Positions 25,489-52,600 of a stretch of 64,000 nt of DNA are shown here, one piece after another. Source of the DNA: Rhina ancylostomus (taxonomy: Eukaryota). Both the position numbers and the translations under genes were made by a program. Numbering within the stretch: the first letter of the stretch is position 1; each line of letters opens with the position of its first letter. The stretch lies in contig JARFYF010000104.1 in the NCBI GenBank assembly GCA_030265395.1, forward strand, positions 62,587,799 through 62,651,798, in the 5' to 3' direction. The notes under the pieces were generated by a model. The model saw only the letters and a program-made list of their open reading frames with translations. It was not told the origin of the DNA and made no database searches.

Positions 25489-25494
25489 TTTATT
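25489..25494 (-). promoter_or_regulatory. Candidate polyadenylation signal AATAAA
   Basis: Lies 16 nt past the stop codon; AT-rich context, so may be chance. Confidence 0.35.
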
Positions 25495-25510
25495 CTTTGC
25501 TTTGTACAGA

Positions 25511-25617
25511 TTAATTACTTTGAAAGGCTGGATTCTCAAAATGGGTGTATTTCATGTTTCTCCTCTGCCATGTCTGCCAAGCAAGGTAACCAAGTACGCC
25601 AGCAACAATCAATAGTG
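25511..25617 (-). CDS. Terminal exon: TM end plus cytoplasmic tail
   Basis: ccttttttcag/ [35 protein letters not shown]; aligns with the LDLR-family W..W..KN...F.NPxY pattern. Confidence 0.85.
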
Positions 25618-28600
25618 CTGAAAAAAGGATAGACAAAAGCATTAGAAGAAATATTCACATTTGCCACAAAAAACTAAACCAATTTTTCATTGTTGGTACC
25701 CAGCACTAATTTAGAGATTCTACCCGCAATTCTAAAAGTAAATGGATTATACATGCACATTTAGTACTAGTTTTGCACGGATAGGGTCTTGAACCAACGA
25801 TAAGGTCTTACAAATGGTAAAGATGACCCAAATAGTCGTAGATCCTTTGCTTGACTTTCCAAGTGAAGTATTCAAATGTGTATCTAAAAAGTAGAAAGCA
25901 AATGTTTCATCATTTCATATACAAGAAATTCAAAAAGGTAAGTTAGTTCTAGGCACTTCATAATCTTACTAAAAGCATCAAGTTGCATTCTTAAGGGGAT
26001 TCCATCTGTGTCATAGCCTGAAACATTGCTTCAGAATTTAAACCAAGTTGTTGCAGCTCCTTCATGGATACTTTAACCAGGAGATTAAAACAGTTCCAGT
26101 CAATGATGCAAATAGAGACCTTGTACAATGTCTTGCTTGAAATTTAGAAAAGGTTGAAATGGAAGAGTTTCAATATTACAAGTATCAAATATGCCCACTG
26201 GTATACTAGGATTGAGGTAAAAGCCCAATGCAAATGAAATTAAGGCACAAAGATCTGCTTAAACAGGATTGAAAAATTTCTGCTAGTTACTGTACTACCT
26301 CTGGGGCTAGCCAAAACTGTTGGCAAGATGGTACGTGATCTGGCAAACTCTTCTGAAGCAACACCTGCAGACATCTTTGTTGGAGCTGTATGTTCATTTA
26401 CTGTAAAGGAATAGGAATAGTTATGTACCAATTTTTTTTTGGTGTTAGCAACAAGTGAATAGGTTTTTAAAAAAGTGTTTGTCATCCTTTCTACATTTAT
26501 CCAGTCTTTAATTTAAAGCTAAATTTTCTAGTCTACAGTAGCAACTCAAACTCATTACATGGTATCCTTCAACCAGGAGGTTAAAATAGCTCATTCAACT
26601 CCATTTACAGTTCTAGAGCATCAAACCCAATTTAGGGGTTTAGGGTAGGAGAGAGATAACTTATATACTTGGAAGTGTAAATTATGCCCAATAAGCTTTG
26701 GTGCTTAATTGCTTGCATCAGCCTAGTGGTCAGGAGGTCTTAGACTTTAGATACAAAGTCTAATACTTTTCCTCCATTTTCAGACCTCTAGCGAATAGCA
26801 GGAGCATCACCAAGACCTGTATGTACCCAAGAAATGCCCCATCAATAGCATAAACATTAGCAAACACTTAAATACCTTAAAACACCCTTACATTAACAGC
26901 TAACAATGAACTTTGTCTGCCTTGGTAAACATCACATGGTCCTTCAATGTCTGGAACTGGACAAGGGGATACGGATGCTCACAGATTCCATGGGAGGTGA
27001 ACATAGGAAATACAAGTACACATGTTCCCACTGGAAACCTGAGTTTTTTGGTGCAGCTCAAAATTTTAGAAATTGAGGGTCTAGAGCTACGATTCTTGAT
27101 TACATGGATAGCATAGTGAATAATGAAGATGGAGTTTACGCCACCGTAGGAGAACTTCAGTTAGAACTGAACCCAAAATACTACCTTCCTGACAATGCTT
27201 CTCATCATCCTTCAACACCATTCCAGTTGGACACACGCAGGTATACTTTGGTGATCGACTGTTAATTTGAGGAGCAGGGAGGCACATGTGCTCACAAGTT
27301 CCAAACTCTGCACACCAGTTTTTCCCTAGAATGCACCAAATCAAAATTTCAGAAACATTCAAGCACAGGAATCAGCTTTAACTGGTGCACTGTAACCATT
27401 CATGCTTTACCAGTTTCACTCCATTTTGTTCTGGATTATCAACAATATGCACAAACAGCAAGTCATCATGCAAACAGGATACAAGTTTGGCAATACTGTC
27501 AGCATTTAGGAAGTTATGTTGTGTAGTTTCTCAACTGATGTTAAATTTGAAGAGTAAAGAAAAATTGAAGTGTGCTTTTCCATCTTTGGGCATGGAATGA
27601 ATTTCTGTATAGAAAAAGTGTACAGGAAGACATGCTAGAATACACTTCCACGTACCAAATCTGTCAAGGCAATTATACTGAAAGTTTCCAATAATCCCAC
27701 AAACCTGAAGAATTTTAACATGTCTGGCATTAAGGCAAATTCAAGAATGGACATTCCATAGCTGTTAGCTGTTTTATTGCTAAATATAATCAAGCAGGAA
27801 CCAAGTCACATTTACAGTACATAAAAGGAGGCTGCAGATTTCTTACCAGGTATCTGTATCAGCTCATGATAGATTATGATGTCTCCAGTTTCAACACTCG
27901 AGGCCAAAAGCTTCACATCACCTCCTGTATACTTGTTGGCTCCATAAATTCCTTTTCCCTCATCAGCCCAGTAAATATAATCCTGGAAATGCACATTTTG
28001 GGAAGATTCCACTTCATAAATCCATGGGAGGCTTTAGTTCAAGTATAACAACTCCTCACAAATGGACCATTAGAATAAATTTGAGATGAAGCTTGCAACT
28101 AAAGTTATAATTCTAGTCTTCAGTTGAAAACTTGGACGTCAGCCACTGAATTTTTGAACCATCTACTCTGAAGAGTTTCATCAAAACTAATCTTTAAAAA
28201 AAAAACATAGATTACCTCAAATAGAGTCACAGCACAAGGATGGGCAAGGAATTCTTGTGACTGCAATACTGTTCTTCTGTCCTGACCATTGAGATCTACA
28301 CTTGACAATGTGTGCAACTTTGCATCAATCCAATACAAGCGGGCTTTCATATAGTCTGTGGAAAAAAAGTTAAACCAATATTGACATAGTCCAACACCAG
28401 GCATTGCACCACTAAAAGAACCTTACTTACCAAGTGCAATGCCTTTTGGCCACTCAACTTTGGCAGCAAGCAAAAGTTGGCGATTAACACCATTCATGCC
28501 TGCTTTCTCGATCTTTGCTGGAGTGCCCCAGTCAGACCAGTAAATAAACCTTGAAAGAAATGGATCACACTTTGAACCAGTTTTTGAATGCATCTAGCAA

Positions 28601-31600
28601 GCTGCAACTCCTGCTGCATTGAAGAATAAACTTCAACTTAATGCAAAGGTAAATGAGCATTTTTAGCTGACCAGAGGATTTAAAAAAAGTGGCACTGCAA
28701 TTTAAAGAGACTGCTCTGGAACAAGTGTATAGACTGGCTCACTAGATTACAAGTGCCAAATAGAATGTTGTTAGATTACTATCGAGCCAGTGTTGATTCT
28801 CATGTGATCTGTTACTTATATCAATATTTTGCATAGAAGCAGAGCTTATTTGTTTAATCTTACAGTAATTTACTTCTACCAATTCCAAATTTCCACCTTG
28901 TACCTCAAGCTAATTTGAAAATGCACTACTACCATTTGGTTGGAAAATTGTATCATTACTTTGACTTGATATCAACACTTCACTTTGAAAAGAATAAGTG
29001 GACAGCATTGAAATTTCAAAAGATGAAAATACTGGATAAATCCAAATCAACACTAGTAAATTTACAAAACTAGAGCACGTAGTACCCTGATAGTGGATCA
29101 ACCACAACTGAAGCTGGTTCCCTTAGGTCCGTATCAAAAAGAATCTTCCTTTTCGTTCCATCAAAGTTAGCCACAGATAGTGTTTTAGTGCCACGATCAG
29201 TCCAGTAAACAAGTTTATTGATCCAGTCCACAGCAATTCCTTCAGGGATTTGCAAGTCATTAATTATGGATGTTCCATCTGCACGATCCCTTCCATTCAG
29301 TGACATGCTACAACAGAAGTACAAGGCAATTAGATAGATCTGCAAAATTTGCTTCCAATTTATTGCTAGAAGGATTGGATTTTGCAAACCAACAGTAGTG
29401 CAATAGGGATACTGGAGACTGCAGACACTAGAACCAGGAGCAACACACAAGCTGGAGGAACTCAGTAGGTCAGACAGGATCTATGGAGGGAGGTTGACAG
29501 TACTCAGCACCAACCTTGAAACTACTCGAGTTCCTGGTTTGTGCATCCACAAATTCCATCTTGCAAATGTTAAGTTATTAAAACTGAGGCTGCACTTCAT
29601 TCAGCAAGGGGGCCAGGGAGCAGGGTTGGTTTAAGTTAATCTCCATGATTTTGGCAATATGCTGGAAATCATCTCAACCTGGAGAACTGTTGATACTTCA
29701 AGATTGAGAGGCATCAGTATTTGTGGTCAACATAAAGTGATGAGCAATCAGGTCTTATCATTGGAACTTTAATAGATTAAATTTAATGCAATATGTCCAT
29801 TACCTGAAGATTGCCTGCTGGCCCACATCAGCCCAGAAGATTCTCTCCTCTGCAACATCAGCATCCAGTGCTACAGCATTTCTCAGCTGCACAGCAACTT
29901 GGGTGTACTCCTGGTGATGTAGTCCTAGCTTCCGAATGTCATGGCGATTCGTGAAGATCAAATAAGGCTCTTTTCCTAAAGTTCAAAGTTGTATTCGCAA
30001 CTCAAATTCCAAAATGCTGTTGTTTTACAATTTGGTTTAACAGACGACAAAAATTTAGTTGTGCATCATGAAACCTTGTTTCATTGTTTTGGTCCAAACT
30101 TGCCATTATAGTCCAAGGTGTTCCATTTAATAAAAGCTTACTTTCATATTTGTAATCAATATACCCAAACCAAAAATCTTCTCCCCACTTAAATTTAGGT
30201 AGATTTAAATTAGTGTATTTAATAGGAAATTGAATGGACTTCAAGCCCTGCAGGTAGTTTTATGCCATTGTCAATGACAAGTTGTTAATGAATGATCATA
30301 GATTCTGGATGTCATCTTGAGTAATAAACTGTAATAGAATGATCACAGGATACAAGAGGGAGCATCCAAGTAGCATCTTAAGACAATGCACCAAATCAAG
30401 GTAGAATTTGCTAAATCCAAAAGTAGCCAAAAATACAATTTCATCTTGTATATTAAACTGTTCAGTTAAAAATCTGGTCAATAAGAAGTGCCTGGATGCA
30501 AGGAGTTTAGATCTGCAAAACAGAACACCCCACCCAACCCCAAAAACATTAAGCTACTCCTATATAGGGAAATGGACTAGAAGTATATTAATTATCTTTT
30601 CTCTTGTCCCAGAAAAGACACACTTGTAGCAAATTACCAACACCCATAAGGAGCATTATCTTACATATGCACAGAAGTTTTATACTCGCCTATTGCCTTG
30701 CAAACTCCATTAGCTGGATCCATAAGGTAACCTGCATGACATTCACATTTGTAGCTTCCATCTGTATTAACACAAATTTGACTGCAAGATCCAGGATTGT
30801 GGCATTCATTAACATCTGAAAAAAAAGTCATTGGGTCCTTCATATTTGTAGTTCAGCAAGGCAATGAAGAATAATGGCTCTAACTAAACATCCTTTATAG
30901 TAAGCACCCAACCAATAGCAGTCCATGTAGTATATCCAAAGTCATACCACAGTTCTTAAGGGTTTATTCAAATCCCTATTAGTTTCCAAGTAAAGCCCTA
31001 ATTATGTTATTGGATTGTTCAGCATCTGGCTCACTGGGGTCATCTGTGCTTCCTTTAAACTCACCAGGTTTACCGAACAATAATACAATTTAACATACAA
31101 AAATTTATGTAGGTGTTTTGTCAATAAGAGTAATGCCTAATAGTCTGGGAAAAAATGTTTTACTGTCATCTCTAATCTTGCAATAGACAGGTCAAGGGCA
31201 CTTACCTCCACAGGTAGTCTTGTCAATCAATTCATAACCAGCAGGACATTCACATTCATAGCCAATGACAAGATCATGGCATATGTGGGAGCAGCCACCA
31301 TTCTTCTTTAAACATTCATTCTTTTCTACAGAACACAAATTGTCAAATTTCAATGTTACTACTCCATACACTATCCTCAAGCAGTAAAAAAATACTTGGT
31401 ACAGTTCAAAAGGAAACTGTCACATCCCGACTTAGACATTTCACTTAATTCCATAGCAATTTATAGTGACCAATTCTTGCACTGCATGGGGGAGAAACAA
31501 ATCTCAAAATTTAGTGCAAGTGGAATCACTTCAATATGAATGGATACCACTGCAGAGTTACAATGTTAGTGCACTCCTGATAGAATCGCTTAATCAATTC

Positions 31601-34600
31601 CAAACCCAATTTCATTTATTCTCCAAATCAGTGAATTTCTGTACACTCATTTTCCATAACAGATTAACATTTGAGCTGCAATAGTCAGAAAACTGAATGG
31701 AATCACCATATGGACTTCAGGATTTCATGCATTTCCAGCAGTTTAAATTCAAATATGCATGTTGAAACTATGCTTCAAGACAATGTCACTTACTGCATTC
31801 ACTGAGAATTTCATCACTCCAGTCTTTGCAGTCCTGCTTAGTATCACATACTTGGCTGATGTTTATGCACTCTCCACTATGACATTTGAAGTTAGTCGGT
31901 TCCATGCATTCTGAAACCAAGTATTGGAAGAAATTGTTCCACTCAATTTTTGGGATTAAAAGCATTGCCGGTAACTATACATGGCTCATGCCAAACANNN
32001 NNNNNNNNNNNNNNNNNNNNNNNNNNNNNNNNNNNNNNNNNNNNNNNNNNNNNNNNNNNNNNNNNNNNNNNNNNNNNNNNNNNNNNNNNNNNNNNNNCAA
32101 ACAAAAGAATGAACTTTGATAACATTGTCACGTTTCTCCATGTTAATATGAGCATTGGTTTTAGTGCAACTTTATAGACATGTTGGAAATTTTTGATACT
32201 TTTAGCAATTGACTCAGCAGCTGCTATTTCTGAAATTAGTTCTTAAGGGATGTACCTGCAACTATTATAGGGAGTGCTGCTGCTGCTGCGATGATGGGGT
32301 GGGGGGGGGGGGGTAGTACACTCCCATGGTCTTCAGGAGGACTGGGCAGGCCGATAAGGAACATGCCTGCTCCTTCATAAAACTTGTGGGAGTAGTGGGC
32401 ACAGATCCTTCAGATCCATTCTCAGGTGCTCAAGGGGAAGTTACCCAGGGAAAATCTCTGCAAGGATATGTAATCACTGCATGCCTTCATGATGCAAGTG
32501 CCCATATCTGCACCTGGGGGGTTGAAGGAAGAGAAGGCACCCCTTGTGTGGGTGACTTCACTAATGCAGTAGTGAGCAGCAGAATCCTGGCAGATCAGTT
32601 GCAGCTGCTCAAACTCTTAACACTGGAAAGCCAAAAGTGACGGAAGATTAGAGGGTCACAGGCAAAGTAGTCCAGACATACTGATCAAGTTGTGTTTGAG
32701 CTTTCCAATCAGAACAAATGCTGTTTGCATAGTGGCCCTTAAATAGCATGGCTTCAAGCGAAAATAGTAGTTAGCAAAACTTGGTTGCTTGCCAAGTAAT
32801 ACATTTTCAGAAAAGGTTGAAAATTTCACTGCAATGAAAAAATTTTGCACATTGTACTTTTGTTGATGCAAAAGTCCCCAAATTGCATCTAATGATTAAA
32901 GAAATATCCCAGCAAAATCAAGGAGTTTCCCAATTGGCACCTTGAATTGCTTTACTCAAGGTTAATCTTCATTTTTCAACACCATATTCTTGGGAGGAGA
33001 AAATTTCTAACCCCATATTACTAAACAAAAAGGCATGCTCACTTACTTTCCTGGCAGTTGATTTCATCATCACCATCACTACAGTCTCTAAATTGATTAC
33101 ATCTTTTTCTCCCAGGGATGCAACTGCCATCATTACATTGGAAGTGATCAGGTCTGCATGTACGAGGAGCTAAGAATTAGAATAGAGATACATTTAACTG
33201 CAATCACTTAAAATGGAAGGCCTTAAAGTGTGCAAAAGTGTATCAGTGCCACATTTGATAAATCACTTTTTTGATCAAGAAGAACATTTTTGCTATATTA
33301 AATGAGGCAGTTTCTGAAACCACCAGATTGCTTCCAGCATTTTGCAAGCATCTGTGCAGAATCTTTTCTTGTATCTCAGATCCACAAGCACATATGGCTT
33401 TGTCTAATTAAACTGTTTAGAAATAAGGTATTGAACTGAATAGAGCACAGGCATTTAGTTTTCTGTGCACTTCCCACTTTAGAAGTAGTGACTATTCTCT
33501 TAAAACCCAAACTGATAAACATTTCATCAACTTACAACTCAAATACATGTACTTTTATCAAAAGCCAAATTTAACTTAATTTTACACAGATTTAAGGTGG
33601 CCTTTGGGAACATGTCCAAGGAAGGATTTTCTGTTCATTCACTAAAGCTCAAGTCCAGAACACAAGCCACTAGATGCAATTGCATACTGAAATGTCATCT
33701 TGGCACTGGTAGAAAACAAATAACTTTGAAGTCACTTTCTCAAATCTCCTTAACACTGAATAGAGGCAAACTAAAAATCTATACTTCAAAACATTCATTC
33801 CATTTAACTACAGAAATATGGCAAGAAGGCAATGAAGGAAATAGGAACAGCTCATCAGGCATTTCAAGCCTGCTGTGTCACTTAATATCATGGTGGATCT
33901 ATGCTGCTTTTACTCATGTCATTTCTCCACACTATTCTTTGCTCTTTCAAATATCCATCATCACTTTATGATCTGGCCTCCACTACTCACCAGGGTAGAG
34001 AATTAAGCCCTCTGCAAGAAGAGATTTCAGTTTTAACTGCAAGNNNNNNNNNNNNNNNNNNNNNNNNNNNNNNNNNNNNNNNNNNNNNNNNNNNNNNNNN
34101 NNNNNNNNNNNNNNNNNNNNNNNNNNNNNNNNNNNNNNNNNNNCAGTTTTAACTGCAAGGGGTTGGTCATTTATGTCCCCTAGTTTGAAGGTCTCCCACT
34201 AGTGGGAGCATCCCAACACATATGCCTTAGGATCACTTGTTTGAACAAGATCTCCCCTTATTCTAAACTCAGGAATACAGGCCAAAACCATTTAGTCTCT
34301 TGTTAGGAGCTCTCTCGCATCCTAGGAATTAGCCTGGTAATCCTCCTTTGCTGCCTCCACATGTTTTAAATCAAGGAGACCAAATCTACGCAGTATTCCA
34401 TGCTAGGCTTTAACACCCTGTATAATTATAAAACCTCTCAAACTCCAATTCATTTGCAAATGAAGGCCAACATGCTGTTTACCTCAACTACTTGGACTTG
34501 CTTGCTAGCGAGCTTTGAGAGGAGCACGAACGAGGATACCTAAATCCTACTGTGCCGCGCTCACTTGCGGTTTCTTCATTTAGATAATCTGCCTTTTGAC

Positions 34601-37600
34601 TTCTCTTACCAAAGTGAATGGCCACACACTTCCCCATATTAGACTCCATTTGCCAATCTATATTATGTTGCAGAATCACAGTATCCTCATCACATGGCCT
34701 TCCACCCGTTCTCAAATTTGCAAACTTTACATGCCGTTCCTTCCTTCAGGACAAGGATGTAAATAGTGAACAATTATGGGCCAAGAACTGCTCTGTAGTA
34801 CGCTACTATTACCTCCTTTCAATCTGCAAAGGACCCTTTTATTCCAACTATTATGCGGCAGCTAGTTTTTAATCCATTTCCAAGACTCTGACACCTTGGG
34901 ATTTTAATGTTTTTAATCCATTTCCAAGACTCTGACACCTTGGGATTTTAATTTATGCATCATCCTCATGGTACCTTGTCAAATGCCTTTGAAATCTAAA
35001 TACACTACATCTTCAAGTTCTGCTTCATCAATTCTCCCATCACATCCTCAAATTCAAGCAAATTTGTCAAACTTGAGGCAAATAAATAACGTTGATTAGG
35101 TTTACTTATATTGTTTTTCTAAATGATTAGCATTTCCTGATTGGCATCTTGCCAATAACTATTAAACTAGCCCATTCCCTGCCTTCTACATTTCTTTGCA
35201 CAATTGGCCATTTTCACACTGAGTCACATTGGCCATTTTCCAATCTTCTGGTACCCTCCTAGAGTTTAGTGTTTTATGAAAAATTTCAACCAATGGGTCC
35301 ACATCTCCACAGCCTTTTGAAAACTCCCAACATACAGTCCATAAGGTCCTAGCAATTTGTCCACATTTGGCACAGCAAGACTACCCCCAAATGAGATTTT
35401 TTAAAAATGTAAATTAGCCCATCTGATATCTTGGGGATATAATATCATCCAGTGGTGAATAAATGACTGACAAAGTAATGGCAGATATGCTGAATAAATT
35501 TTGTTTTGCTTGTCTTCACCCTTGTTCTCTAGAGGTCCTCCATCTACCTTTGCTGCCCTCTTCCTATATATCCATAGAAACTTAGGTTTTAGAACCCATG
35601 CAAAGTTCTCTCTTAAATTCATTTTATCCCCAGAGCTTCTTGGACACTTGCAGCTGGATCCCAAAAACTTCCTAGTCTCCTGGTCTCCTACCTTCTCGTC
35701 ACTTTGTATATTCTAGACAATTCCTCCCCTCAGCATTATAATTGCACTTATTCAAATTGAAGACCCTTGTTATGCACCCATGGCCTTTATCCTCAAACTG
35801 CATTTGAATTCCATTATATTGTGGTCACTAACCCCCAGGGGATCTTTAACCACAAGGTTCATAAATCTTTCATTACACAAGAATCTAAAATAACCCATTC
35901 CCAGGTAGACACCAATGTACTGCTCCAAAAAAGCAATCCAACATTTTCCATAAATTCTATGATACCCTTGCCAGTTTGGTTCATCCAATCAATGTAAATT
36001 GAAGTGTGTAACCAGAAAGAAAGACTTACGACAATTAGCTTCATCACTTCCATCTTTGCAGTCAGCATCACCATCACAGTACCAGTTCTGGTGGATGCAT
36101 TCACCTGAAGCACACAGGAACTCATTGGGAGAGCAGGCCAAAAGAGGAAGAGTGTATCCACAGCGGTCTGGAGATTCATCTGATTTATCTCTACAATCCA
36201 CACTGTTATCACACACCCAGTTTAAAGGTATGCATTCTGAACTATTGCACTGAAACTCATGAGTGCCACAGGCANNNNNNNNNNNNNNNNNNNNNNNNNN
36301 NNNNNNNNNNNNNNNNNNNNNNNNNNNNNNNNNNNNNNNNNNNNNNNNNNNNNNNNNNNNNNNNNNNNNNNNNNAGCAGCACAGTGCTTTTCATCACTTC
36401 CATCACCACAGTCATCCATACCATTGCAGGCAAATGCCTTGGCAATGCATCTACCACTGGAGCAAGTGAATTCCAAATGATCACAAGTAACTGTACCTGA
36501 AAAATATAAAAATGGAGCTTACAACAGGTAATGATTGCAAGTATACCATATACTGTTCCCCATATTGTTTTGCAAATTAGACAAATTCAAATATCACACC
36601 AAGATGCTGACCAGCTGGACAGGAAGATTTTAAATATCAGTTACGATGGCAAATTGATGGTAACCTCTGTTGCATTTTAAACTGAAACCAACTCATTCAT
36701 TTTATAACAAATAAATTGATAACCAGTGCCGTAACTGACTTCACAAGTGGTTAAGGGCTCAGAGCAGATTACTGCGCAAAATTTACATTTTAGATTGAAT
36801 TCGATACCTCCTTGAGCAAAAGTGGCAAAGCAAACTTCAGATTATTGCACAGACACCAAGTGATTAAAAACAATTCAAATTCACCAGGATACTAGCCAGA
36901 AGGGGGAAATAAAACATAAGAGTGAAGATACTGAAATCTTATAACATTGTAATAACTTGAAGTTTAGAATGAGGTGGCCACGGTAAAGTGTTAGAACAGA
37001 AGAAACTTACTAATTCATACCATATGTAGAACTTTCTGGAAGCATGAATACCATCAAATTGACCATGTAGTCAATTAGTTAACAAAAGAAAATGTAAATT
37101 CCAGCTACCGCATTGAAGTCATCTTATGCTGGGGGAAATTTTGCAACACCACAAACTGGTCTCAAAATTTGCCCCCTGTCAAATGGACATCAGTTTGAAA
37201 TTTGGTGCAAATACATAGAATGAAAAATGAAAGTCAGTGAAGATTGTTGCCAGCTTGGACATTAGTTAACCTACCACAATCAATCTCATCACCACCACTT
37301 TTGCAGTCCTTCTCTCCATCACACTGCCATGCAACAGGAATGCACTGCAAGGATCCAGGTCCACAGCTGATTTCATGGCTAAGACACACTCTTTGATCTG
37401 GCGGAAAAAGTTGATACTTCATACTGAAGCTGCATTTCAAATAACCTCAAATTTAGTAACTGGAGTGGTAGGCAAATTGTAGCTACGTGCATTCAATACC
37501 ATGAGCTCTGGCACAGAACTGGTCAAGTTAGTGGTACATGCTGTCAAGTAGTTATAGCATTTGATACATCTACTTGGAACATTTACATTTCTAATCTGTT

Positions 37601-40600
37601 GCAATGTCAAGGACAATAGTTGTTGCTCATGACAGGGTCACCCAGATGTGGATCACTGACTAATGCCAGGAAGTTACTATTTGGGAAAATGTCAATATTC
37701 TAAAGCAATACTATAACCTTGGAGGCATGTTTGTGTTCCAAAAATCAGATCACAGCATTCCTTGTTGAAAATCCACCAAATGCTAAATTTTAAACAGATT
37801 GTAGACATGCAAGTGAATGGCAATATGCATTGGGCAAATAGTACACATCCCTTACTAGAATACAAGTGGTACTTACGACAGACTTCTGTACTTTCATCAG
37901 ATCCATCTTCACAGTCAGCTTTGCCATCGCATAACCACCTACTAGGTATACATTGCTTATTGCGGCACACAAAGTCAGATGCTCCACACGTTTTAACTAA
38001 TGGAAAGACAACTAGTAAACCACATTGCTCTCAGTTTACATTCAGCCTCTAATGATTAAATAATTACTGAAAATTGTTTCCTTTGCAGGGGAAGTCAATT
38101 ACCACATTAGATGGACTCAATTTTAACCTAGGTATAAAGCAAATAACTGTTTGTCTTTTCTCCATTCATGCAATACCTAGCCGTTTTGTTAGTCTATGTA
38201 GGGGGAGCTCTGGTTTCAACCTCATTTTAATCATGCAAATTGACACTTAATTGACTTTGTGCCGAAGTTCAGGTTTGTGAATCAAGTTCAAGAATAAAAA
38301 AATCCTCACACAATTAGACTACCAAATAGAAATGGCTTAAATCAATACCTTGCTCTAAGAGTTAAACTCTAGGTTAGATCTAGTGGATGTTGGGCAAACT
38401 CACATATACCCATCCTGCAGTGCTGTCTATCTTCATCCAGCTCCATCCCAGATGGACACACACAGGTATATTTTGGAGAGTCTCTGTCAATTTGGGGAGC
38501 TGGGAGACACATGTATTCACAGCTTCCCATCTTAAGATTCTCACACCAGTTTTTGCCTGTGGATACACAAATCTAGTTTGCAATTGGATCCTTCCAACTA
38601 GGAAAATCAGACTCAGATTATTTAACTCCAGTAAACATCATACAGACCCAAAATTCAGTAAACCAAACAATTCATTCCAATGAGAAATTGAAAATGAACC
38701 TTTTCCAATGTCACTGCTGGACTAGTGGGCAAGAGTAAATTGCCAATGACTGCAGAGGAGCTGGTATCTGACAAAATTTAAAAGCAGAATGCCAGAAACT
38801 GGCAACAGATTTACAGAACACAACTTAAAATACAAGCCAAAGACATGAAGTGGCAAGGCCATCTGCAAGCTGTTGGCAAAATCCTGAACATATTCTTAAA
38901 CACTTAAACTTTCAGACAAGGGCTCAGGCAAAAGTAATATTGCACTTATCACTAAAATATTTAAATGTAGTCAAGTGGTGGATAGTTATGACATGAAGTT
39001 TGACATTCTTTATTCATTTATACAGTGCATTGGAAAGCTTGGTCCCATTCATTCTTAAAGAGGGGGAGAAAAAAAATAACCGAGTTTTTTTTTGGGGGGG
39101 TGCTGTGCAGAGGGGAAGAAAATTGTGGGGGAAGAGTGAAAGAGAATTTGGAAATTCACAAATACAAGGAAGAGTTGAACAAAACTACTGACTGCAATGT
39201 TATATAGTCACCTTCAAGGTGAATTTAACAAGTCAAGAACACAGTCAAAATTTACCTGATGGTTGAGTAAGCTCATGATGAGCAATGAGATCTTGAGGCT
39301 CAATGTTGACAGCTAAAAGCACTGTATCTGAACCTGTAAATTTGTTGGTTCCATAAAGTGCTTTTCTCTCCCCGTCCACCCAGAACACATTATCCTAAAA
39401 GCAGCAGATTATCAAAATTGTTAATGCTTATAAATGCAATAGCAATTTCCAAGTTACTTACTGACGTGATAGAATCACACCAGGTGCAGCTTGAATCTTT
39501 GATCATCATCAGTAATTCAAGACAGAAGTAAGGACCTACAATTGATCAAAGTCAGCTTCAATTTCAACCTAGCAGTTGAAGGATGGCCTCGAGGTTTGTC
39601 TCTCCTACCCGTCATTAAAGTTAAATCATCCAACTTTCTCCCTTCAGTTGCCACACACTAATCAATTACTCATTTAAAAACCCTGATTTCCCCCCGCTGC
39701 CCCAAAGTAGTCTAGAGAACACAGTATTATAGTTTACATTGAGGTGTTAAGTGATAGGTAGTAGCAGAATACAAAATACTGATGTAGGGTGGAAGGTGAA
39801 CATTCTAGTGACAAAGGACCAGATTTTAAATAATTAACATTCAAAATTTGGCCTTGCATGTTAAGTGATTCTGCTTGTTGCAGTGTCCAGAAAGGATGTC
39901 TTAGAATACTTAAAACCGAGGGGGAAGACTAACCAGGGTGGTGGCAGCTTTGTCTGGGCATGGGGAGGGTCATTCTAGATGGGGAAATCTTATTCTGGAC
40001 CAAAAAGTGTTTGGGGGAAGTGGGGGAGAAGAAATATTAGGGATGACTGGTTAAAAAGATGTCCATATCAGAATATGGAATGGAATGCCCCTGGGAGAAC
40101 AGAACAGAATCCCTGCAGGTTGCAAGGAAATTAGACTAAGGTGGTATGGAAGTCAATGGGTTTGTAATGGATGCAAGTTACTGGACTATTTCAGGATACA
40201 AAGGATTAGTAGAGAAGTCAGGTGAATACATTGAACAGATGGACAAGGTACAGACTGTACAGTCAAACTTGCCTCAAATATGGCAATTGCAAGAGCATGA
40301 GCAAGGTATTCCTTTGTCATCAACACAATTCTTCTGTCTTGACCATTTAAGTCTACACTTGATAATACATGCAGTTTTGAGTCAACCCAATAAAGACGGC
40401 CCTTCACAAGATCTGTGGGGGGGGGGGGGGCAGGGAGGGAAAATGCATTGCATTATAAAGTGAAATTATAGTATATAGTACATACTCTAATCAGGATTGG
40501 CAACCTACTTACCAAGAGCAATGCCATGTGGCCATTCAATATCTCTGGTAACCAGGGCATTACGGTCATAACCATTCATTCCTGCTTTTTCAATCTTTGC

Positions 40601-43600
40601 TGGCTCACCCCAGTCTGACCAGTAAACAAACCTTGAAACATAAACAGGAATATCAATTAAAACACTTCAAGATGGTGACCCAAAATTAATGCTGGAGTCA
40701 AACTTTTCCTTAAAAAAAAATCTCAGCATTTGTATTCATGACGATTGGAGGGCTAATATTTATCACTCCAAGTTAAGCAGTTGTTTACAAAGCTTAACAT
40801 TTCTGAAATAAGCACATTTCCGAGTCAGATTTGATACCTCTAGCCTAGAGAAACTCAGGGGTTCATTTCAATCCCACTTATCCTGGACCTGGTCAAAGAA
40901 CTTTATATTTCTAAATGAAGCTTTTAGCTTTAAACTTAACCAGTTAATCACAATCTTTATCATTGTATCTTTAATGACAGACTCACTTCCTAGTTAATTA
41001 GGAGTCTCAATTTTTAAAATAAAGCATTCAGGAATGGTCAAAAGATTTCTCTCAGCCAAAGCTGGAAAAAACTGAAGCCAAAAAGTCAGCTTAGAACAGT
41101 GAACAAAGTTGCCAGTTATCAAAAAAAAAGTCATATGAAGTTAAATATTACCCAGAGAGTGGATTGACAACTATGGAAGTTGGTTCCCTTAGGTCTGTAT
41201 CAAAGAGGATTTTTCTTTTTGTTCCATCAAATTTCACAACAGAGATGGTCTTGGTGCCACTGTCAGTCCAGTAAAGATGCTTATAGATCCAGTCCACAGC
41301 AATTCCCACAGGAACTCCTAGATCTTTGACTATGTTGGATTTATGAACAGAGTTTCCATTTTTATCCATGGACACACTGTTGAGAGTAATTAGGAGTTAG
41401 AAGGGTGCCATTTAGAGCTTATCTATTTAAACATTTTATAATCCATTTCAAGAGCTTTTATCTTTCAAGATCACGAACAGGGGAAGAACACCAGTCTTCT
41501 CAGCTCTGAGCATGGAAAAGCAGGACTGAAGCTAATTTGCCAATATGCAATTTATGCCCAAGAGCAAAATGCTCCTAAAGCTCATGCTTAGAATTATCAT
41601 CATTCACTGATATTTATGGAACAGAACAGCATTCCACATCAGTTTGCAGACGTTGCTCTAGGAAGCAAGTTATCAGGGTAATTAAAGAGAGCATTGTACT
41701 AGGATCAGTTGAGGCTTCTTGCCCAGATCCAACCAGATTGCCAGTTTAAATCCAACAACCAATTTGCCCAAATTAAATGTTCAGACTATACAATAAATAC
41801 CATTGGTTCCAATACACAGTAGCCAGAAATTACACAATATCTATAATGAAATTGTTATTTCATAGATGTAATTCTACATCTATTGCCCCCACCCATTTAC
41901 AATAGGAGGACATGCAGAATGGGTCCATACTGTTCATTTAGAGAATCTAGTGGTTTAGTGCTAATGGCACAATTTGAGCATCAGAAATTTGCACACTTTG
42001 AGACAGCTGTTAAATGCTTTGAAACTTGCAGTCCTCTACAGATTCTTAAACAATGCAATCTGAACATCCAGAAAGTCTCAAGAAAAAGAGTTTGCATATG
42101 GCAGGTTGTTTATTGGAATCCAAGGGACAAATGGAAAATTGGATCCTAAAGTGGCTCAGCAGCAAAATATAATGGCTGATGTTCATTTTGTGATTAGGCT
42201 GTTACTAATGGAGGTCCAAGGCCCAACCTTTTGCCTTCCAATATGCAGCAATAATAATTTAGACTTTAATAGGGGGGCATGATATAGAGCTTGCAAGTGT
42301 TTAAAAAATGGTTGTAGTTAATAGTGAGGAAAGCAGACTGCATGAAGATATAGATGATAGGGACAAAATAAAAGCGGCAAAATGGAAGTTAATCTAGACA
42401 AATGCAAGATTATGCATTGGGGAGGTTCGATAAAGGTAGTCTTCAATAAAGAGGATGGAGTGTTGGAAAGGAGGGGATCAAAAGGACTCTGAGCATACAC
42501 CCCAAGACAAAAGGTGGTAGGATAGGACAAAATACTGGTTGAGGCAGAGAATAAAAGAGCAGGAAATTTATGCTGAAATAGTTTAATTAAAAACTAGATC
42601 ACAGAACTGGTCACATTACAAGCTAGAAGTTACACTGAAGATGCAGGGGAGATCAAGGATACCGCCGGGACTAGAAAATAGTAGCTAGAAAAATCTTAAG
42701 CTAGGGTAGCTTTCAACGGAACAAGGTTTAAACATTTGAGGGAGAACAGTGGAGAATGGGTATAATATTCTGAAGGGATATGAAAATGCAGCAAATTTGG
42801 GTAAGGTAGCATCTGTGGATATGAAATCAAAATTCAGATAGATAGAGGCTGCTAGACTTCTAGCTTCTGTAGGGTTTTTGGCTTTAAACATATGCCCTTT
42901 CATTTTAAAGTAGGTGGTGAGAAAGGAAAGCAAACCATTGTATTCTCTGGACACATTGTGGGATAAAGAGGAGATGATAGAGGCAGAACCTTCATAATAA
43001 AAAGTACAGATCCAAGTAATTTTCAGAGTTGTCACCCATAAGGCTATAGAGCTAGTCCAGAAAGGTGGGATAAGACCGTGATACTTTTCCCTTCCTTCTG
43101 CCCCACACTCCTAACCAGAATGGTCTCATGTCATAATATCCCAATTCTAGAACAAATTGAAACATTTCCTCAAACACTAAATCAATGCAAGTTTACTTCA
43201 AGATAAATGAAGATATTTCAATGAATATCAATACTCAGATGATTATAGTCAAGTCTCAAAAGACTTTACTTTAATTCGCCAAAGTCATACCTAAAAATTG
43301 CTTGCTGTGTTAAGTCAGCCCAGAAGATGGTTGATGTGGCAACGTCAGCATCAAGTGCTACAGCATTTCTCAACCGAGAGACTATCTCTGTGTATTCCAT
43401 TTTGTGCAATCCAATTTTCCTAATATCATGACGGTTAGTGAAAACCAAATAAGGCTCTTTACCTAAAAATAAATCTTAGTTAAGGACATTTTGAAAACAA
43501 GATTTCTAAATTACAATAGCAGCTTCTGCTCCTAGTGACAATTCATTCAAAACCTGGAAAATAATGCTGGCTAACCATTATCTGTTCAAAGCACTCCTTG

Positions 43601-46600
43601 ATCCCCTTCCTAGAGGGTAACTTGGTTTTTAAATAAGCCAATTGAAGTTCTCAGTTTTATCCAAGATATGGTGCCTCATGGCTAAATAACAAGTGTATCA
43701 TCTTAACAAATGCAATTTTAAACTAGGCATCACTTAAAGTTAAAAAAGATAGTTTGAACAGATGTTCTACTTACCCAGTGCCTTGCAAATCCCCTTCACT
43801 GAATCCATGTGGTATCCTTTGTGACACAGGCATTCATAACTCCCCACTCTGTTGATACAAGTTTGACTGCAAGTTCCAGGATTTTGACATTCATCGATGT
43901 CTAGATCAAAATTACCAATATTCATTGTTATCAGCATCAAATAGCAGGAAACAGGTCCTTTAACCCGCCACATCCATGCCAATAAAGCATCTATATTAAT
44001 TTTCATTTTGTATCCTAATTAATGAGCACACCCTCCCTCCCTCCCCCCACCAACCAACTACACAAGAGGGAAATTACAGAATTAACCCAATCTCAGAACA
44101 AAACCAGAGTTTAGGCTATATNNNNNNNNNNNNNNNNNNNNNNNNNNNNNNNNNNNNNNNNNNNNNNNNNNNNNNNNNNNNNNNNNNNNNNNNNNNNNNN
44201 NNNNNNNNNNNNNNNNNNNNNCTTTAAGTATTTCTCATTCTAAGCCATAACAGTAATTAAAATGCATGATGAAAATTTACCTCTGCAGAATTTCTGAAAT
44301 AACTTAAACCCAGGAAGGCATCCACATTTGTAGCCAATGGGAAGATCATGGCAAATATGCGAACATCCACCATTGTTGACTAGACATTCATTCACATCTG
44401 AAAAATGTAGAATTTCAGACTCTATCATTTGAAGCAGCACAAAAAACAGACCAAACAACAGGAAGCTGCACAAGTCTTTTAGTACAAGCTAGATAATCCT
44501 TTTGGAAAAATTTCACTGTGGCACATTGCTTGTGCAGGAACTTAAACTGCTTTGAGGAACAATGAACAGACAAGGGACTTTTAAACAAGGATGCCTGCAT
44601 TCCAACTGAGAAGTAATTATAGGTGACCACATCCCTGACTCAAAACATCAACAATTGCTCCCCCCAACCTAACAGATGCTGCTCAACCCACAAAGTTCCT
44701 CCTGATTGTTTGTTAGTGTATCTATGTGTGTGGAATCATGAGATTAGAGGTCTTAAATGAATACTTCACCTAAATTTACTGTGGAGAAGTTAGCAAATTC
44801 AAGGATGAGAACAGTGATGTCCTGGAGCACATCAATATACAGTAGGTGTTAGTCTTAAAGCACCCACAAAAGGTACGTGAATCTTAAAGGCCTGACTAGG
44901 TGTATCCCAAGACATCGCAGGAAGCTAGGGAAGAAATTGCTGGGGTTCTGGCAGAGGTACTTGTATCAACTTTAGCTATGGGCAAAGTACCAGAGTGCTG
45001 GAGGATGGCTAATATTGTACCTCTAAAGGACTGCAAGGACAAGCCAGGGAACTACAAGCCAGTGAGCCCAAGTGTAGGAAAGTTACTGGAGGGGAGTCAG
45101 ATAGGATCCATTTGGAAATGCAAGGGCTTGTTAGGTATAGTCAGCATGGCTGGCGGGGGGGGGGGGNNNNNNNNNNNNNNNNNNNNNNNNNNNNNNNNNN
45201 NNNNNNNNNNNNNNNNNNNNNNNNNNNNNNNNNNNNNNNNNNNNNNNNNNNNNNNNNNNNNNNNNNGGCTCATGAAATTTGATTTTTTTTTTTAAATTTA
45301 AAAGCTAAGTGTCCAAGAGGATTGATGAGGGCTAGGCATGTAGGCATTGTCTACCTGGACTTTAGCAAAGCCTTTGACAAGATCCTGCATGGGAGGATAG
45401 TCAGGAAGGTTAGATCACATCTAGTGCAAGCTAGCCAATTGAATAGAAAATGTGCCTGGTGATAGGAAGAGGAGGGAGTCAGAAGGTGGCAGTGGAGGGT
45501 CATTTTCCCCAGATTGGAGGCCCTTGACCAATGGTGTGCCTCAGGATTGGTGCTGGGTCCCATTGTGTTATATATTAATGATTTGACTGAGAATCTAGGT
45601 GGCATATAAGTATCTTTTCAGGTTACTGCAAAATTGGTGGTATGGAGGACAAAAATTGCACAAGGTTATAACAGGATCCAGATCAACTGGGAAAGTGAGC
45701 AAAGGAATGGCAGATAGAATTTAACTAAAACAAATAATGTAGTTTGAGAAGTTAAATCAGGGAAGGACAGACAGTGAATGGCAATGCCCTGGGGATTGTT
45801 GTTCAGAGGTATCTAGAGTTACAACTATATAGTTCTGAATGATGACACAGGTAGACAAGGTTTAAAAAAAAGCATATTGTATGCTTGCCTTCATTGGTCA
45901 GGGAATTGATTACAGAATTTGGGATGTCATGTTACAAAATACAGCAAGACCATTTTTTAGAATATTGTGTGCAGTTCTGGTTACCACACTACAGGAAGAA
46001 TACGATTGAGCAAGAAAGTGCAGAAAAGATTCACAAGGGTGTTACCTGAACTGGAGGGCTTGAATTACAAGGAGAGGCTGCGACTCATTTCCCTGGAGGG
46101 AAGGAGGCAGAGGGGTGACCTTAGGTTTATAAAATTATGAGGGGCATAGACAAGGTGAATGGTCAGTCTTTCTCCCCAAGGAGTCCAAAAGTAGAGGGCA
46201 TAAGTTTAAGGTGAGGAGAACAATTTTAAGAGGGGTGAGATGCAAGTTTTAGTCATGCTAAAATTTAACCTAGACTAAATTTTATTCACCTTAAGGAATA
46301 ATGATAGTTCTTTACTTTTAGCTTTTACTGTTTACACTATTGCAGCCACCTGGAGTACAGCATTTAGAATGTCAATCTTGTACAACCCTAGTGCTCACTT
46401 ACTACATTCAGAAGGCTCATCACTCCCATCTCCACAGTCCTGATGGTTGTTGCACACTCTGGTTGCATCTATGCATTCACCACTTTGACATTTGAAGAAA
46501 GATGGCATAGCACACAAAGAATCTGCAAGTGATAAAATGTATCCATTACAATAACACATTTTCTGCAAGTCCTCAAGTGCAAAACACAAAAAACAGTCAC

Positions 46601-49600
46601 TATCCTAGACACATCCCCAATTCATAAAATGCTAGAAATACTGTAACTTAGCAGCATCAGAACAAGTATTTCAGACTAGTCATCTCTTGTCACAACTGTT
46701 TGATGAAAGGTTATTGACCCAAAGCTCTTCTGTACAGATGGTGCTTCACCAGATGTTCCTAGTATCGTTTCCACCATCTGTTTTGCTTTTCAACTTACTG
46801 TTGGAGACATCCAACAAATTAACTGCATTTCTCCCTCAAAGCTCAAGTATCAAAGCCTACTCGAATGTTAGGAACTATATGGCCCAGAGTCTGAACTCAA
46901 GCAAACTTGCATATTAATTGTTGACAAGGGAGTCTGGGATACAAGGCCAACAAGTCCTGCAGTACACAAGCAGCTAGTTTTAATAGTATAAGCATAACAC
47001 ATTTCAACTTCAATGCCAACCTCCAGCAGCATCAATATTTTACCCACCTCCCAAAATAATGGCCAATTTCAGCTGTGCACAAGTGATAATTGCTTTTGCA
47101 CAAACTACATCCTTGAAGAGAATACAACCATCATTTCTGTCAAGATGAAATTTAGATCCATGCAGATTGCCTTCAAAATGGCATCAAAATCAAAGCACCT
47201 CTTTACTCTCTATTCTCATCAGGCTACACAAAGCATCTTTGAATCCCTGCTGTTATCCTTCCATCATGCAAGCCATCCCCTTATTCCAACCCTTTCAAGT
47301 ATCATCCACGTTCAACCTGCAACAACTTGGATGAAAATAGCCTGTTGAGCATATTGTTTATCAAACATTTTAATCTCCATTCTCTGGTAATGCAGCTCAG
47401 ATGTTCACTTTCACCCATAAAGTATCATGCAGTGTTCCAGATCATTGTTCACTCAGCAATGCAAACTAATTCAGTTCCTATTCCATTTCTGCATTTTCGT
47501 GAACTAGTTGGGGGCGAAACGTTAGTTGTTAGTGTTCACATTTGATCCAGAAGAGAAAAAAATCAGAACTTTCATCAGCTTTGGCAATGAGCTCACCTAT
47601 ACTATTGCTGATAATCAGGTGTGACTGACCATTATTCAAACACAAGGCCCATTTGCAAGCCATTTGCCTGTCAAGTCAGACAATGGTCTAAAAGTTCCAT
47701 AATTACAAATCCTCAGTTTATGGCTAAAACCAGCATAAGAATTATTATATTCTTACCATTTTTACAACCAATTTCATCACTTCCATCAGTACAGTCCTTG
47801 TATCCATTACATTTATGGCCTTCAGGGATGCAGGAACCATCACCACATCTGAAATAATCTAGCCGACAAGTCTGCAGCGCTTAAAAGAGACAATGGTCAT
47901 TGACAAGCAACGAATTTAAAAATGTCCATCATCTTTTAACCACCCTCCCCCCTCCACCCCAATAGTCCACTAATCACCTACTGGCNNNNNNNNNNNNNNN
48001 NNNNNNNNNNNNNNNNNNACCACCAACCTCCTATAGCTGCTGCAAGTTACGGACTAGGTAACTATTAGTGAAGGTCCCTTTAAGATAGGGTGAGAGTGTG
48101 GCGTGCTTACATCAGCCAAGTTCCTCCAGCAGGTTGTTTGTTGCTCCAGACTTCTGCAACTGGAACACTTAGAGAGCCAATGCTTACAGAAGCAAAAAAA
48201 TTTTACTTACGGCAGTTGATTTCGTCACTTCCATCCTTGCAATCCCTATCTCCATCACAGTACCAACGGCGATGAATGCATTCTCCTGAATTGCAGAGGA
48301 TCTCATTGGAAAAACAGGTAGGAGGAGGAGAAGGAAGCGTATGGCCACAGCGTTCTACTGATTCATCAGACTTGTCTGTACAGTCAATGTTGTTGTCACA
48401 CAACCAGTTTTCAGGGATACACTCCAAACTACTGCATTGAAACTCATGTAATCCACAGACTGATTGAACACAGCTTTTTTCATCACTTCCATCACCACAA
48501 TCATCTTCACCATTACAAACAAAAGATTTAGAAATGCATCTGCCACTTGAGCAAGTAAATTCCAGAGTACTGCAAGTGGAAATGCCTAGGGAGAACAAAG
48601 TGCTTTGTAAATTTCCTGCTCCTGTAGAGAAAAGTCATCAAGACCCATTCAGAACTGATAACTATAATGCATCTTCATAGAATATTTCAAAGGAGTCATA
48701 CTTTGAAAGGTGTGGGGGAAAAAAATGAAATTCAAGAATAATAGAACAATTTGTAAAGGATAATTGTAGAGTTATTTGAGCAGTAGAAGTGATTTTAAGG
48801 CAACAAACTCAATGACTCTAACAATGTTGGCAACACCACTATTTTTAGTGTTTGTATCAAGTGGCACTTTTGATGGTGTTAGTACTAGTTTTAAAAAGAT
48901 TTAGGCACCAAAATTTAGTCTTTGTGGTGACTGGAGTACTGAGACTTAAAATTGGGAACTGATGTCTTTAATGGAATATAATTTATAGCAGAATATAGAG
49001 GAATTATAGAAATCAACTTTAAGTAATAAAAAGAGCAGATTAATTAGCAAAAAAAAACTTACAGTTCTCCTCATCACCACCATTAGCACAATCCTTTTCA
49101 CCATCACATTTCCAGGAGACAGGAATGCATTGAAGAGATCCAGAACCACAGCTCACCTCATGAATCTCACATGCACTAATATCTAAAAGAACATATACAA
49201 CTGATCCAAAGCCCAAATTTCAGTATTTTAACATTCAAAAATTAGCTTTAAAACATGCAATTAATGTATATGCCAATAATCAAGCCTCAGTTTACAACTT
49301 TAACAAATTTCAAAGTCCCTGCATTAAAACTGCATATTCTGTTCCACTAAAGCACTCATTTTGCTACTCAATTACTAGCCATTCTAAATCTCCAAGCATA
49401 AAAGTTACAAGATGTGTAGACTTTCAAATTGCCTCTGAAGATTAAATTGTTGAAATTCAGATTCAAAATTGAATCAAAATGGAGTGCAAATTAGATAATT
49501 GCCAGATTAAGATTACCTGTTCTACACTGCTGTCCATTCTCCACTTTCATTCCAGATGGACACACACAGGAATACTTCAGAGGGGAAGTACCTTTCAGAG

Positions 49601-52600
49601 GAGCAGGGAGGCACATATATTCACAGCCTCCTTTCAAGGAATCATTGCACCAGTTCTTACCTGCAAAAAAAAAGTTTCCAGATGCAAATTGCCTGGGTGC
49701 AGTAGGTTATACAAGGTATAATGCTTGCACATAATTAAGGTTAAACTTTGCAAATCAGAAGTCCTGCAGCAACTGTTCCACCCAAGTCTTTTTTAGACAA
49801 ACTCAACTCACTGCAAATCACACTGTTAAGCAAATACATTTGCTTCATTTTGGCTACCTTTCACTTGGCAATTTAAATGTAGTTGAAGCCAATGATTTAA
49901 TAAAACCCATCAGATTACAGATTAGTTAGGGATTTAGCTAGTTATTGATCTAGTAGTCAAATCCAGTGATTGGTACAACATCTTGCCAGTTCTTGGAACT
50001 GTTAGAATTTTAAATGGTGAACACTATCAGGAAAGCATAATCTAGTCAAGACTGCCATTAAACTAGTATTGTCAATGCAGCACCAAATCTGACAAGAATG
50101 AAATCCCCCCACCACATTAATTTAATGTACCAATGTTGTTCAATATTTGGCAGCCACAGTTTACTCATGTAATTCAAACTCCCAAAGCACTAGTCCATGG
50201 AATGCAAGTCTCCAGCTAAGACACTGAAAGCAAATGTCAAGTTTGTCAACAATACTAAAAAATATTTGACAGAAGACATGTGACAAGGAAGCAGTCATTC
50301 ACCCATCTTAAAAAAAAGTGGTAGACACTGTGGTAGTGCCTTAGTTGGTACTTTGGAAAGTGAGGCAAAAAAAAATAAATCAAAATCATAGACAACTCAG
50401 ACCACTTACCAAGAGGCTGTATTAACTCATGGTAAATTACAAGATCCTGAGATTTCTGGAGATTAGAAATTAGAACCTGAAGATCTGCTCCTGTGAATTT
50501 GTTGGCTCCATAAATAGTTTCAGTGTCTTCATCAGACCAGAAGACATGATCCTGGAAAAATATTTAAATTTAGTTACTATACTCATTTGTAGAGTCTTCA
50601 ACCAAGTACCTTTCTCTTGTTTAATACACTATGAAATCCACAGTAGAGGATACTTACACGTAAAAAGGTTGCTTGTGAAATTTGTGGCTACTTTTTTTAA
50701 AAAAGCTACAAATGGTATATTTAGTGTATGCAAACACAGTCTTGGGTGTAAATTGAGATACTTCATGTTAAATGGTGAAATTGTTTCTATACTAGAAACC
50801 AGCAGCGGGGTGGGGTGGGGTGATGGGTGGGTAAAGAGGAGAAAGAAAGTGCTAGAAACATTCAGATGTGGCCTGAACTCCTGAGAAAATAAAAATCTCA
50901 GGCCACTGATCTGCAGTGTCTCTCCACAGGCCTGCTAGATGTTTCCTAGTCAGATCAAAAATTTAAAATCCATTCCAGAATTGACAAAGTTTGTCCACAT
51001 GAATGGAAATTAACGTGGACAAATTCGAACAAGTTAAAACAATGGAAAATGAGATAAAGCAACTGAACATTTAAAAATACTTGGAGGTGCAGGGGTAGAC
51101 ACTATTTTCACATGGATAAAGTTCACTTCCCTCCACCAGAAAATGACAATTTGGTCAAATTTATATTGCTCTTAAATCAAGGCTGGTTTTACCCCCAACC
51201 AGCAAAGAAAGAAATTTGAGGGAAATACAAAACATCTTTTAAGTACATGAGCAAAATCAAACTTGGATACATTTACTCAAAACTATTGGTCAAAAGTTGG
51301 TTGTATTAATTCAAATTCCTTCATTTGCCAGCTCGGTGGTATGAAACTAAAAGAAAGAGGACCTGAGTCAATGACTAATTGGCAGCTTCATTTTTGTGAT
51401 AAGTACCTACATGTCAGGGGTTGCACTAATGACATGAAAGTTACAGTGCAATTCTGTGAACAGCTTATTCCAAACTCGGTTTTTTGGGAATTTATAGTAG
51501 TACTTAAACTTGCTTGTAGATAGCTAGAACAAACATTAAATTTCAAAAGCCTTACCTCAAATACTGCAATGCTGTAAGGTTGAGAAAGGAAATCTAGTGA
51601 CAAAAGCACTGTTCTTCTATCCTGTCCATTCAGGCCTACGCTGGATATTGTGTGCAACTTTGAGTCAACCCAATAGAGGCAACTTTTCACAGTGTCTTGG
51701 GAGGAAGAAAATTTAGATTGTAATCCCAAACTAAATTGAAAGTAGAGGATGCTTTTAAAAAGTCATCTTACCAAGTGCAATGCCATTTGGTTTCTGAATC
51801 TCTACATCAACCAGGACCTGTCGATCAACACCATTCATTCCTGCTTTCTCTATCTTTGCTGGTTCACCCCAATCAGACCAGTAAATAAATCTAAAAATAG
51901 TTAAAATCAAGCTTTATGAACATCTCAAAACAATCAAATTCAATGGTTGACCAAAAGTAAATGACAAAAGATAAACCTTGCCAACATGCTGCTAACTAAG
52001 ATTGGTTTGGATTTCTGAAATGAAGCCAGCCCAATTATAAAGCATTACAGTGCTATGAACAAATTCAGAAAACATCCTTCCCACCCACTTTATGCTCAAT
52101 CACAGGAGGATTTCACATTCCTCTCCCTTTGCCCACTACAACCCCATTCTGTTCCAAGTGGCTGTGTTTTCTTGGCCATTTAATTCAGTTCCTGGAGCTG
52201 GGTGCTGCAGGTGAGCATTTCGAAACAGCTAATGCATTAATGACTAATGTTCAATGTTATTTTAAATATACACATCCAATTCCCTTAGAAGCTTTGGTCA
52301 CAATTGTGTTGCCAGGCATGAGAATTCAAAGGCAAGTCAATCTAATTAAAGTACACAACTTAAAATCCCACATGTAGTTAATGGTTAGTCTGCAAATCAC
52401 ATTGAACTATTACATTATGCAAGTCAATGCTTTCTACAAGCCATTAACAAAATAGGATACCCTGATAATGGATCAGCTGCTATAGAGGCTGGTTCTGTCA
52501 TATTGTCATCAAAAAGGGTCTTCCTTTTAGATCCATCCATTGTAGCCACAGATATTGTTTTAGTACCACGATCAGTCCAGTATATGTGCTTGTAGATCCA

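Follow-up and report, generated by a model that had tools for sequence, protein, structure and literature searches.

Gene Content and Organization of the Window

The window, that is, the whole 64-kb stretch of Rhina ancylostomus DNA analyzed here, contains an intact gene that is the published chondrichthyan VLDLRc2. The tandem set VLDLRc1, c2, and c3 was named by Ohishi et al. 2023 (PMC10015161). As shown in Table 1, the gene lies on the reverse strand, where three VLDLR-type ectodomain units in tandem lead into one stalk, one transmembrane (TM) helix, and one tail. All core features of an LDLR-family type I receptor were found, namely a signal peptide, class A repeats, EGF and YWTD modules, an O-linked region, and a single TM helix. 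The first class A exon is located approximately 2.3 kb past the end of the window and the signal-peptide exon approximately 3.5 kb past it (~67.5 kb). When the Pristis pectinata model was mapped to the locus, 2160 of its 2168 residues were placed at 94.8% identity in 44 segments with no stop within them; this orthologue carries 21 class A repeats. The model itself (P0066) begins without a signal peptide, and a signal-peptide exon that matches those of other orthologues was found in the Rhina genome.

Table 1: Features of VLDLRc2 in the window.
Feature	Position	Strand	Basis or remark
AATAAA, likely polyadenylation signal	25489..25494	-	16 nt after the stop; X1 contig ends at 25477, 12 nt further (a hint only)
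TAA stop, 3 codons past the motif	25511..25513	-	No change listed in X1-X3; position kept in 18/24 tails
Last coding exon: second half of TM helix, cytoplasmic tail of 21-22 aa, TAA	25511..25617	-	Spliced contig, GT-AG intron
Suspected splice donor AAA/GTAATT	25513..25521	-	Read through in X1; weak score
FENPAF, FxNPxF variant of the FxNPxY endocytic motif	25523..25540	-	F, E, N, P, F invariant in 24/24 c2/c3 tails
Stalk (juxtamembrane) and first half of TM helix, exon	25812..25883	-	Spliced contig, orthologue mapping
Ser/Thr-rich exon, likely O-linked sugar domain	26299..26400	-	Spliced contig, orthologue mapping
Ectodomain unit 3: 7 class A repeats, 2 EGF, YWTD propeller, EGF	27186..37994	-	
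Ectodomain unit 2: 6 class A repeats, 2 EGF, YWTD propeller, EGF	38405..49183	-	
Ectodomain unit 1: 7 class A repeats inside the window	49518..63490	-	

Unit 2 opens with a class A repeat of the third type (49061-49183) and therefore contains six, not seven, repeats; the same holds for the Pristis orthologue. In unit 3, the exon that encodes three repeats is interrupted by a 100-nt N gap (36275-36374), the length of which is probably nominal, since the orthologue needs only about 2 residues there. The Ser/Thr-rich exon carries a 6-nt in-frame insertion at 26305 in DNA run X3. Pattern scans of positions 1-25400 found no LDLR-family exon; this part holds retroelement-like fragments (e.g., 9751-10760) and the unexplained open frames 16514-17097 and 18581-18821.

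On the same strand of the genome, a five-unit gene is located upstream and a one-unit gene downstream, giving the order c3, c2, c1. In a tree built from the last 500 amino acids of 23 rows, the window gene grouped with the named catshark c2 (BDQ29912.1; support 100/100) and the upstream neighbor with c3 (100/100), and c2 and c3 together formed one clade (100/99). The Callorhinchus row fell inside the c2+c3 clade, its placement between c2 and c3 being left unresolved by the tree. This model (P0111), labeled c2 in the supplement of PMC10015161, has a TM segment and tail that look c3-like, which may reflect gene conversion or a label that needs review.

The Terminal Exon and Its Short Cytoplasmic Tail

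The last exon begins at 25617 in phase 1, directly behind an acceptor AG at 25619-25618 (reverse strand) with a pyrimidine-rich stretch upstream. The tail that it encodes is 21 amino acids long when counted from Q and 22 when counted from the first W, and the final Phe codon of FENPAF is TTT (25525-25523, reverse strand). The protein of this exon was identical to that of Pristis pectinata (XP_051876531.1) at 33 of 34 residues. The bare pattern FxNPx[FY] occurred twice in the window against 0.85 expected from 40 shuffles; it is not rare, and the evidence for the motif is therefore its position after the TM segment together with its conservation. No Pfam family matched in the tail exon, and a PDB sequence search with this exon gave no match under an E value of 0.05, LDLR chains being aligned weakly.

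Three sequencing runs, from different organisms in the case of X1 and X3, were compared with this region. DNA run X2 showed 0 differences over 25448-26420, and DNA run X3 had two changes listed in the coding exon, both synonymous. A 2077-nt contig from X1 joined 26299-26402, 25812-25883, and 25477-25617 over two GT-AG introns; X1 was taken as RNA from an automated guess and from this spliced contig, a single one from a single study. The contig was seen in a narrow comparison and was not among the matches listed at 85% likeness for 23700-31997. Its terminal piece had 6 differences, of which the 2 listed lay in neither the motif nor the stop, and none of the differences listed in X1, X2, and X3 affects the Phe codon or the stop. 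No run lists a Tyr codon (TAT) in place of Phe. The short tail, its stop, and the AATAAA beyond it, which a preliminary description of this DNA had read from the letters, were confirmed in the sequence and in the X1 contig, and the Phe codon and the stop also in both DNA runs. The short tail and its stop are genuine, and an assembly error is contradicted by X2 and X3. Pseudogene decay or an assembly error could be suspected from the N gaps near the last exon and within one upstream exon; with an intact frame, a spliced transcript, 0 differences in an independent read set, relatives that differ only synonymously, and a tail kept in 18 species, we regard the probability of either as negligible.

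The preliminary description had also pointed to a possible splice donor, CAAA/gtaatt, overlapping the last codons. This site was not used in the transcript seen: the X1 contig spans it with flanks of 99 nt and 42 nt and continues through the stop and AATAAA. Its donor score was equaled or undercut by 7 of 39 gene donors and equaled or exceeded by 308 of the 3522 GT sites of the window, on a matrix that is rough because the 39 donors were picked automatically and approximately 5 of them are probably wrong. Downstream of the stop up to the next gene (40774 nt, 3644 of them N), there was no FxNPxY and no remnant of the c1 distal tail or last exon, so the further NPxY tail exon that had been considered was not found there. 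Blastn likewise gave no support to the c2 end as a deletion remnant of the c1 distal tail. Five further batoid c2 models besides Pristis stop at the identical codon. The main mRNA might still be spliced at CAAA/gtaatt to a further exon with a longer or NPxY tail, as the site is donor-like, part of the downstream sequence is N, and contigs, from which an RNA end is not provable and a rare isoform not excludable, drop rare forms. However, the read-through, the weak score, the empty downstream region, and the shared end of the batoid models make this very improbable.

Conservation of the FENPxF Motif in VLDLRc2 and VLDLRc3

We compared the tail with those of related receptors. In the Rhina genome, the upstream VLDLRc3 exon has the C-terminus FENPAFQYDSLQKP followed by a stop, whereas c1, LRP8, and LDLR carry FDNPVY and long tails; the c1 exon is longer, and a further exon follows it. 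A representative search gave 62 matches, of which 58 had FDNPVY, one FGNPVY, and two FENPAF; the one remaining match was unrelated. Among 55 c2/c3-type models, the tail motif was present in 36, all of them FENPxF; 18 others were fragments that end before the TM segment, and one (Leucoraja c3) reaches the TM segment and stops short of the motif. With each gene of each species represented by a single row, there were 24 tails from 18 species (13 c2 and 11 c3, the chimaera included), in which the motif was FENPAF in 16, FENPVF in 7, and FENPLF in 1. Six of 22 columns were invariant, namely W(-18) and the F, E, N, P, and F of the motif, and the other 16 varied; the spacing from motif to membrane was fixed. 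The rabbitfish c3 in the supplement of PMC10015161 has FENPVF plus 9 residues. Most of the c2/c3 orthologues are predicted models.

These results bear on a check proposed in the preliminary description, the conservation of NPAF and of the stop in orthologues. F, E, N, P, and F held in 24/24 tails, but the x position varied (A, V, or L), and the conserved unit is the NPxF type (FENPxF), not NPAF. The stop stood 3 residues after the Phe in 18/24 tails, whereas six shark c2 tails extend 6 or 9 residues. Nor is the truncation particular to the window gene, as had been implied; it is the ancestral state common to c2 and c3. Searches with FENPAF-bearing queries are biased to the motif, the others less so, and no multi-unit chondrichthyan receptor with NPxY appeared in searches that drew mostly on ectodomain words. 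The occurrence of FENPxF in both paralogues, in chimaera as well as in sharks and rays, places the origin of the short Phe-type tail before the duplication that gave c2 and c3 and before chimaeras and elasmobranchs diverged approximately 400 million years ago.

Two c3 ends departed from this pattern. Rhina VLDLRc3 (1480-1599 of the upstream piece L002) runs 8 residues past FENPAF compared with 3 in 11/11 other c3 tails, probably through a lost stop. The Leucoraja erinacea c3 model (P0119) stops at ...QQSMKL, directly before the motif, which could be a one-base assembly frameshift or a real loss.

Signals Missing from the Short Tail

The c2/c3 tail resembles the canonical VLDLR/LDLR/LRP8 tail in exon phase, in the juxtamembrane W-x-x-W, and in spacing to the motif. 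Within the motif, E stands in place of D and F in place of Y, and the tail is shorter (22-28 aa compared with approximately 54). It also lacks the lysine that follows the motif, the acidic cluster, the distal G-H/Y-x-Y-P segment, and the final exon. An FxNPxY motif with tyrosine was absent, Phe occupying the position in 24/24 tails. Lys at +2 after the motif, the IDOL target position, was found in 0/24 tails; the lysine after NPVY is described as the sole IDOL target in VLDLR (PMC2888382). Lys was present at +3 in 6/24 tails, all shark c2, and Cys at +2 in 7/24, and judging from the sequence either might serve as a ubiquitin acceptor. Only 3-9 residues follow the motif, the acidic cluster and distal tail are absent, and no remnant exon was seen. 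The LDLR basolateral signal is placed at residues 812-828 (PMC2289410), and the expectation that distal sorting signals would be altered was borne out, the distal segment being absent from the tail. SNX17 accepts Phe, and distal acidic residues may strengthen its binding (PMC3976305); those residues are missing from c2/c3 tails. No second known endocytic signal was found in them.

Proposed Function of the c2/c3 Tail

The exon described here is the genuine, spliced terminal exon of chondrichthyan VLDLRc2, and we consider it likely that its ancient minimal tail, FENPxF plus 3 residues, signals uptake without a tyrosine on what is probably a yolk receptor. The c2/c3 tails likely still drive uptake, probably of yolk protein, without the usual degradation and sorting signals. 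Retained endocytosis is suggested because LDLR with Phe at 807 (FDNPVF) has an internalization index of 0.95 compared with 0.2 for Ser/Ala (PMC2133019, Table I), as the preliminary description had stated for Phe at the Tyr position, and because the two conserved NPXF motifs of amnionless engage Dab2 at a level comparable to NPXY in cultured cells (PMC10295476). The amnionless NPXF would engage ARH too according to a review (PMC4194038) that writes the motif as NPXY. In the catshark, expression of c2 and c3 is reported as ovary-only and that of c1 as broad, with c1 also in ovary (PMC10015161); the cargo-receptor role put forward earlier fits this pattern.

In the proposed mechanism, FENPxF would be recognized by a PTB clathrin adaptor, ARH or Dab2, and possibly also by SNX17. 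Adaptor binding would keep the receptor cycling constitutively through uptake and recycling, with vitellogenin or lipoprotein as its cargo in the ovary. With no tyrosine at the motif, tyrosine phosphorylation there would be impossible. Lacking the IDOL-target lysine, c2 and c3 should escape IDOL ubiquitination and so shed sterol-feedback degradation, and lacking the distal segment they should have lost basolateral or polarized sorting. VLDLRc1 retains the regulated canonical tail, which would be a case of subfunctionalization. We infer that c2 and c3 are constitutive cargo receptors, probably for vitellogenin.

The tail might instead serve mainly in recycling or surface retention of the SNX17 type, with c2 and c3 acting as ligand-capturing coreceptors that need VLDLRc1 for uptake. 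Coexpression of c1 in the catshark ovary (PMC10015161), the binding of SNX17 to the same motif type (PMC3976305), and the lack of a second endocytic signal are consistent with this; however, FxNPxF alone gives near-normal LDLR uptake (PMC2133019), and the motif lies at the same distance from the membrane as in LDLR and c1. We regard the coreceptor role as rather improbable, and it, the longer isoform, and the pseudogene are progressively less likely in that order.

It is possible, although we hold this only tentatively, that the motif has been retuned, so that FENPxF is selective for one adaptor, be it GULP, Numb, or an ARH adapted in this lineage, and shuts out others, Dab1 for example; this is compatible with the uptake signal preferred here. 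The invariance of E and F in all 24 tails, compared with the FDNPVY of nearly all canonical relatives in the representative search, argues for retuning, as does the variant motif of Drosophila Yolkless, which is read by Ced-6/GULP and not by ARH or Dab2 (PMC3338440). The comparable engagement of Dab2 by NPXF and NPXY in cultured cells (PMC10295476) argues against it. A further point in favor comes from megalin, whose first tail motif is the ARH site in mammals (PMC4194038) and was FENP[MV]F in 5/5 elasmobranch LRP2 models from four species (P0123, P0125, P0129, P0131, and P0133). Any NPxF was found in 1/42 of the remaining long non-LRP1 receptors; the bony-vertebrate LRP2 rows listed have FENP[ML]Y, and the Callorhinchus LRP2 model is without the first motif. 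Against retuning, megalin often has E at -4 (43/47 long non-LRP1 receptors). A PTB-domain search of the Rhina genome gave at least 24 matches, whose exons we take to be those of GULP, NUMB, Fe65, SHC, and similar proteins; no ARH, Dab1, or Dab2 exon was recognized among these 24, a lower bound.

A broader and more speculative reading, which we think less likely than not, is that c2 and c3 form a dedicated high-capacity yolk receptor pair in which the ectodomain was multiplied and the tail cut to an unregulated, IDOL-proof, unsorted pump that is closed to phosphorylation at the motif. The Y to F change at the megalin ARH site of sharks and rays would then be part of a lineage-wide retuning of PTB adaptors, convergent with insect vitellogenin receptors.

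In c2 and c3, evolution has in effect dissected the LDLR-family tail, and the outcome has long been conserved: FxNPxF was kept at a constant spacing, and the tyrosine, the IDOL lysine, and the distal sorting segment were lost. Tail reduction may have occurred once the duplicate was freed from jobs that VLDLRc1 still does. The tail also offers a handle on how sharks and rays provision their yolk-rich eggs, and the short FENPxF tail is a diagnostic feature for c2/c3 genes, public models of which are labeled LRP1-, LRP1B-, LRP2-, or LRP4-like in databases.

Comparison with Known Systems

The window gene is identical in kind to the VLDLRc2 of Ohishi et al., with three units in tandem with a five-unit c3 and a one-unit c1 (PMC10015161). 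The words "cytoplasmic" and "NPxY" are absent from the main text of that paper, and "cytoplasmic" is absent from its supplement text too. No published description of the c2/c3 tail was found among the literature matches listed, a coverage that mostly leaves out subscription journals, and the relevant passages of two family surveys (PMC11772764 and PMC12480657) give only the NPxY rule.

Compared with human LDLR, the c2 tail is approximately a natural double mutant of Y807F and stop-812, with Phe in the position of residue 807 and a stop that comes one residue ahead of stop-812. The LDLR forms were engineered, whereas the c2/c3 state has been fixed by evolution. LDLR stop-812 went apical in hepatocytes (PMC2289410). 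Amnionless, with NPXF, and stabilin-1, with NPxF, are likewise scavenging receptors with naturally conserved Phe-type motifs, which engage Dab2/ARH or SNX17; both are unrelated to VLDLR proteins, and amnionless has two motifs. A conserved F-x-N-P-x-F in the cytoplasmic tail, the mark of an amnionless-type signal, is present in c2 and c3. Insect vitellogenin receptors are also multicluster LDLR-family proteins with nontyrosine motifs, such as the NPAF of the whitefly Bemisia (PMC4861306) and the FQNPLA of Drosophila Yolkless. In contrast to c2 and c3, they carry dileucine-type signals, and the insect and chondrichthyan motifs are presumed to be of independent origin. The VLDLRc2/c3 genes and the NPxF signal type were already known, and the short Phe-type tail conserved in c2 and c3 is real, ancient, and a variant of that known signal.
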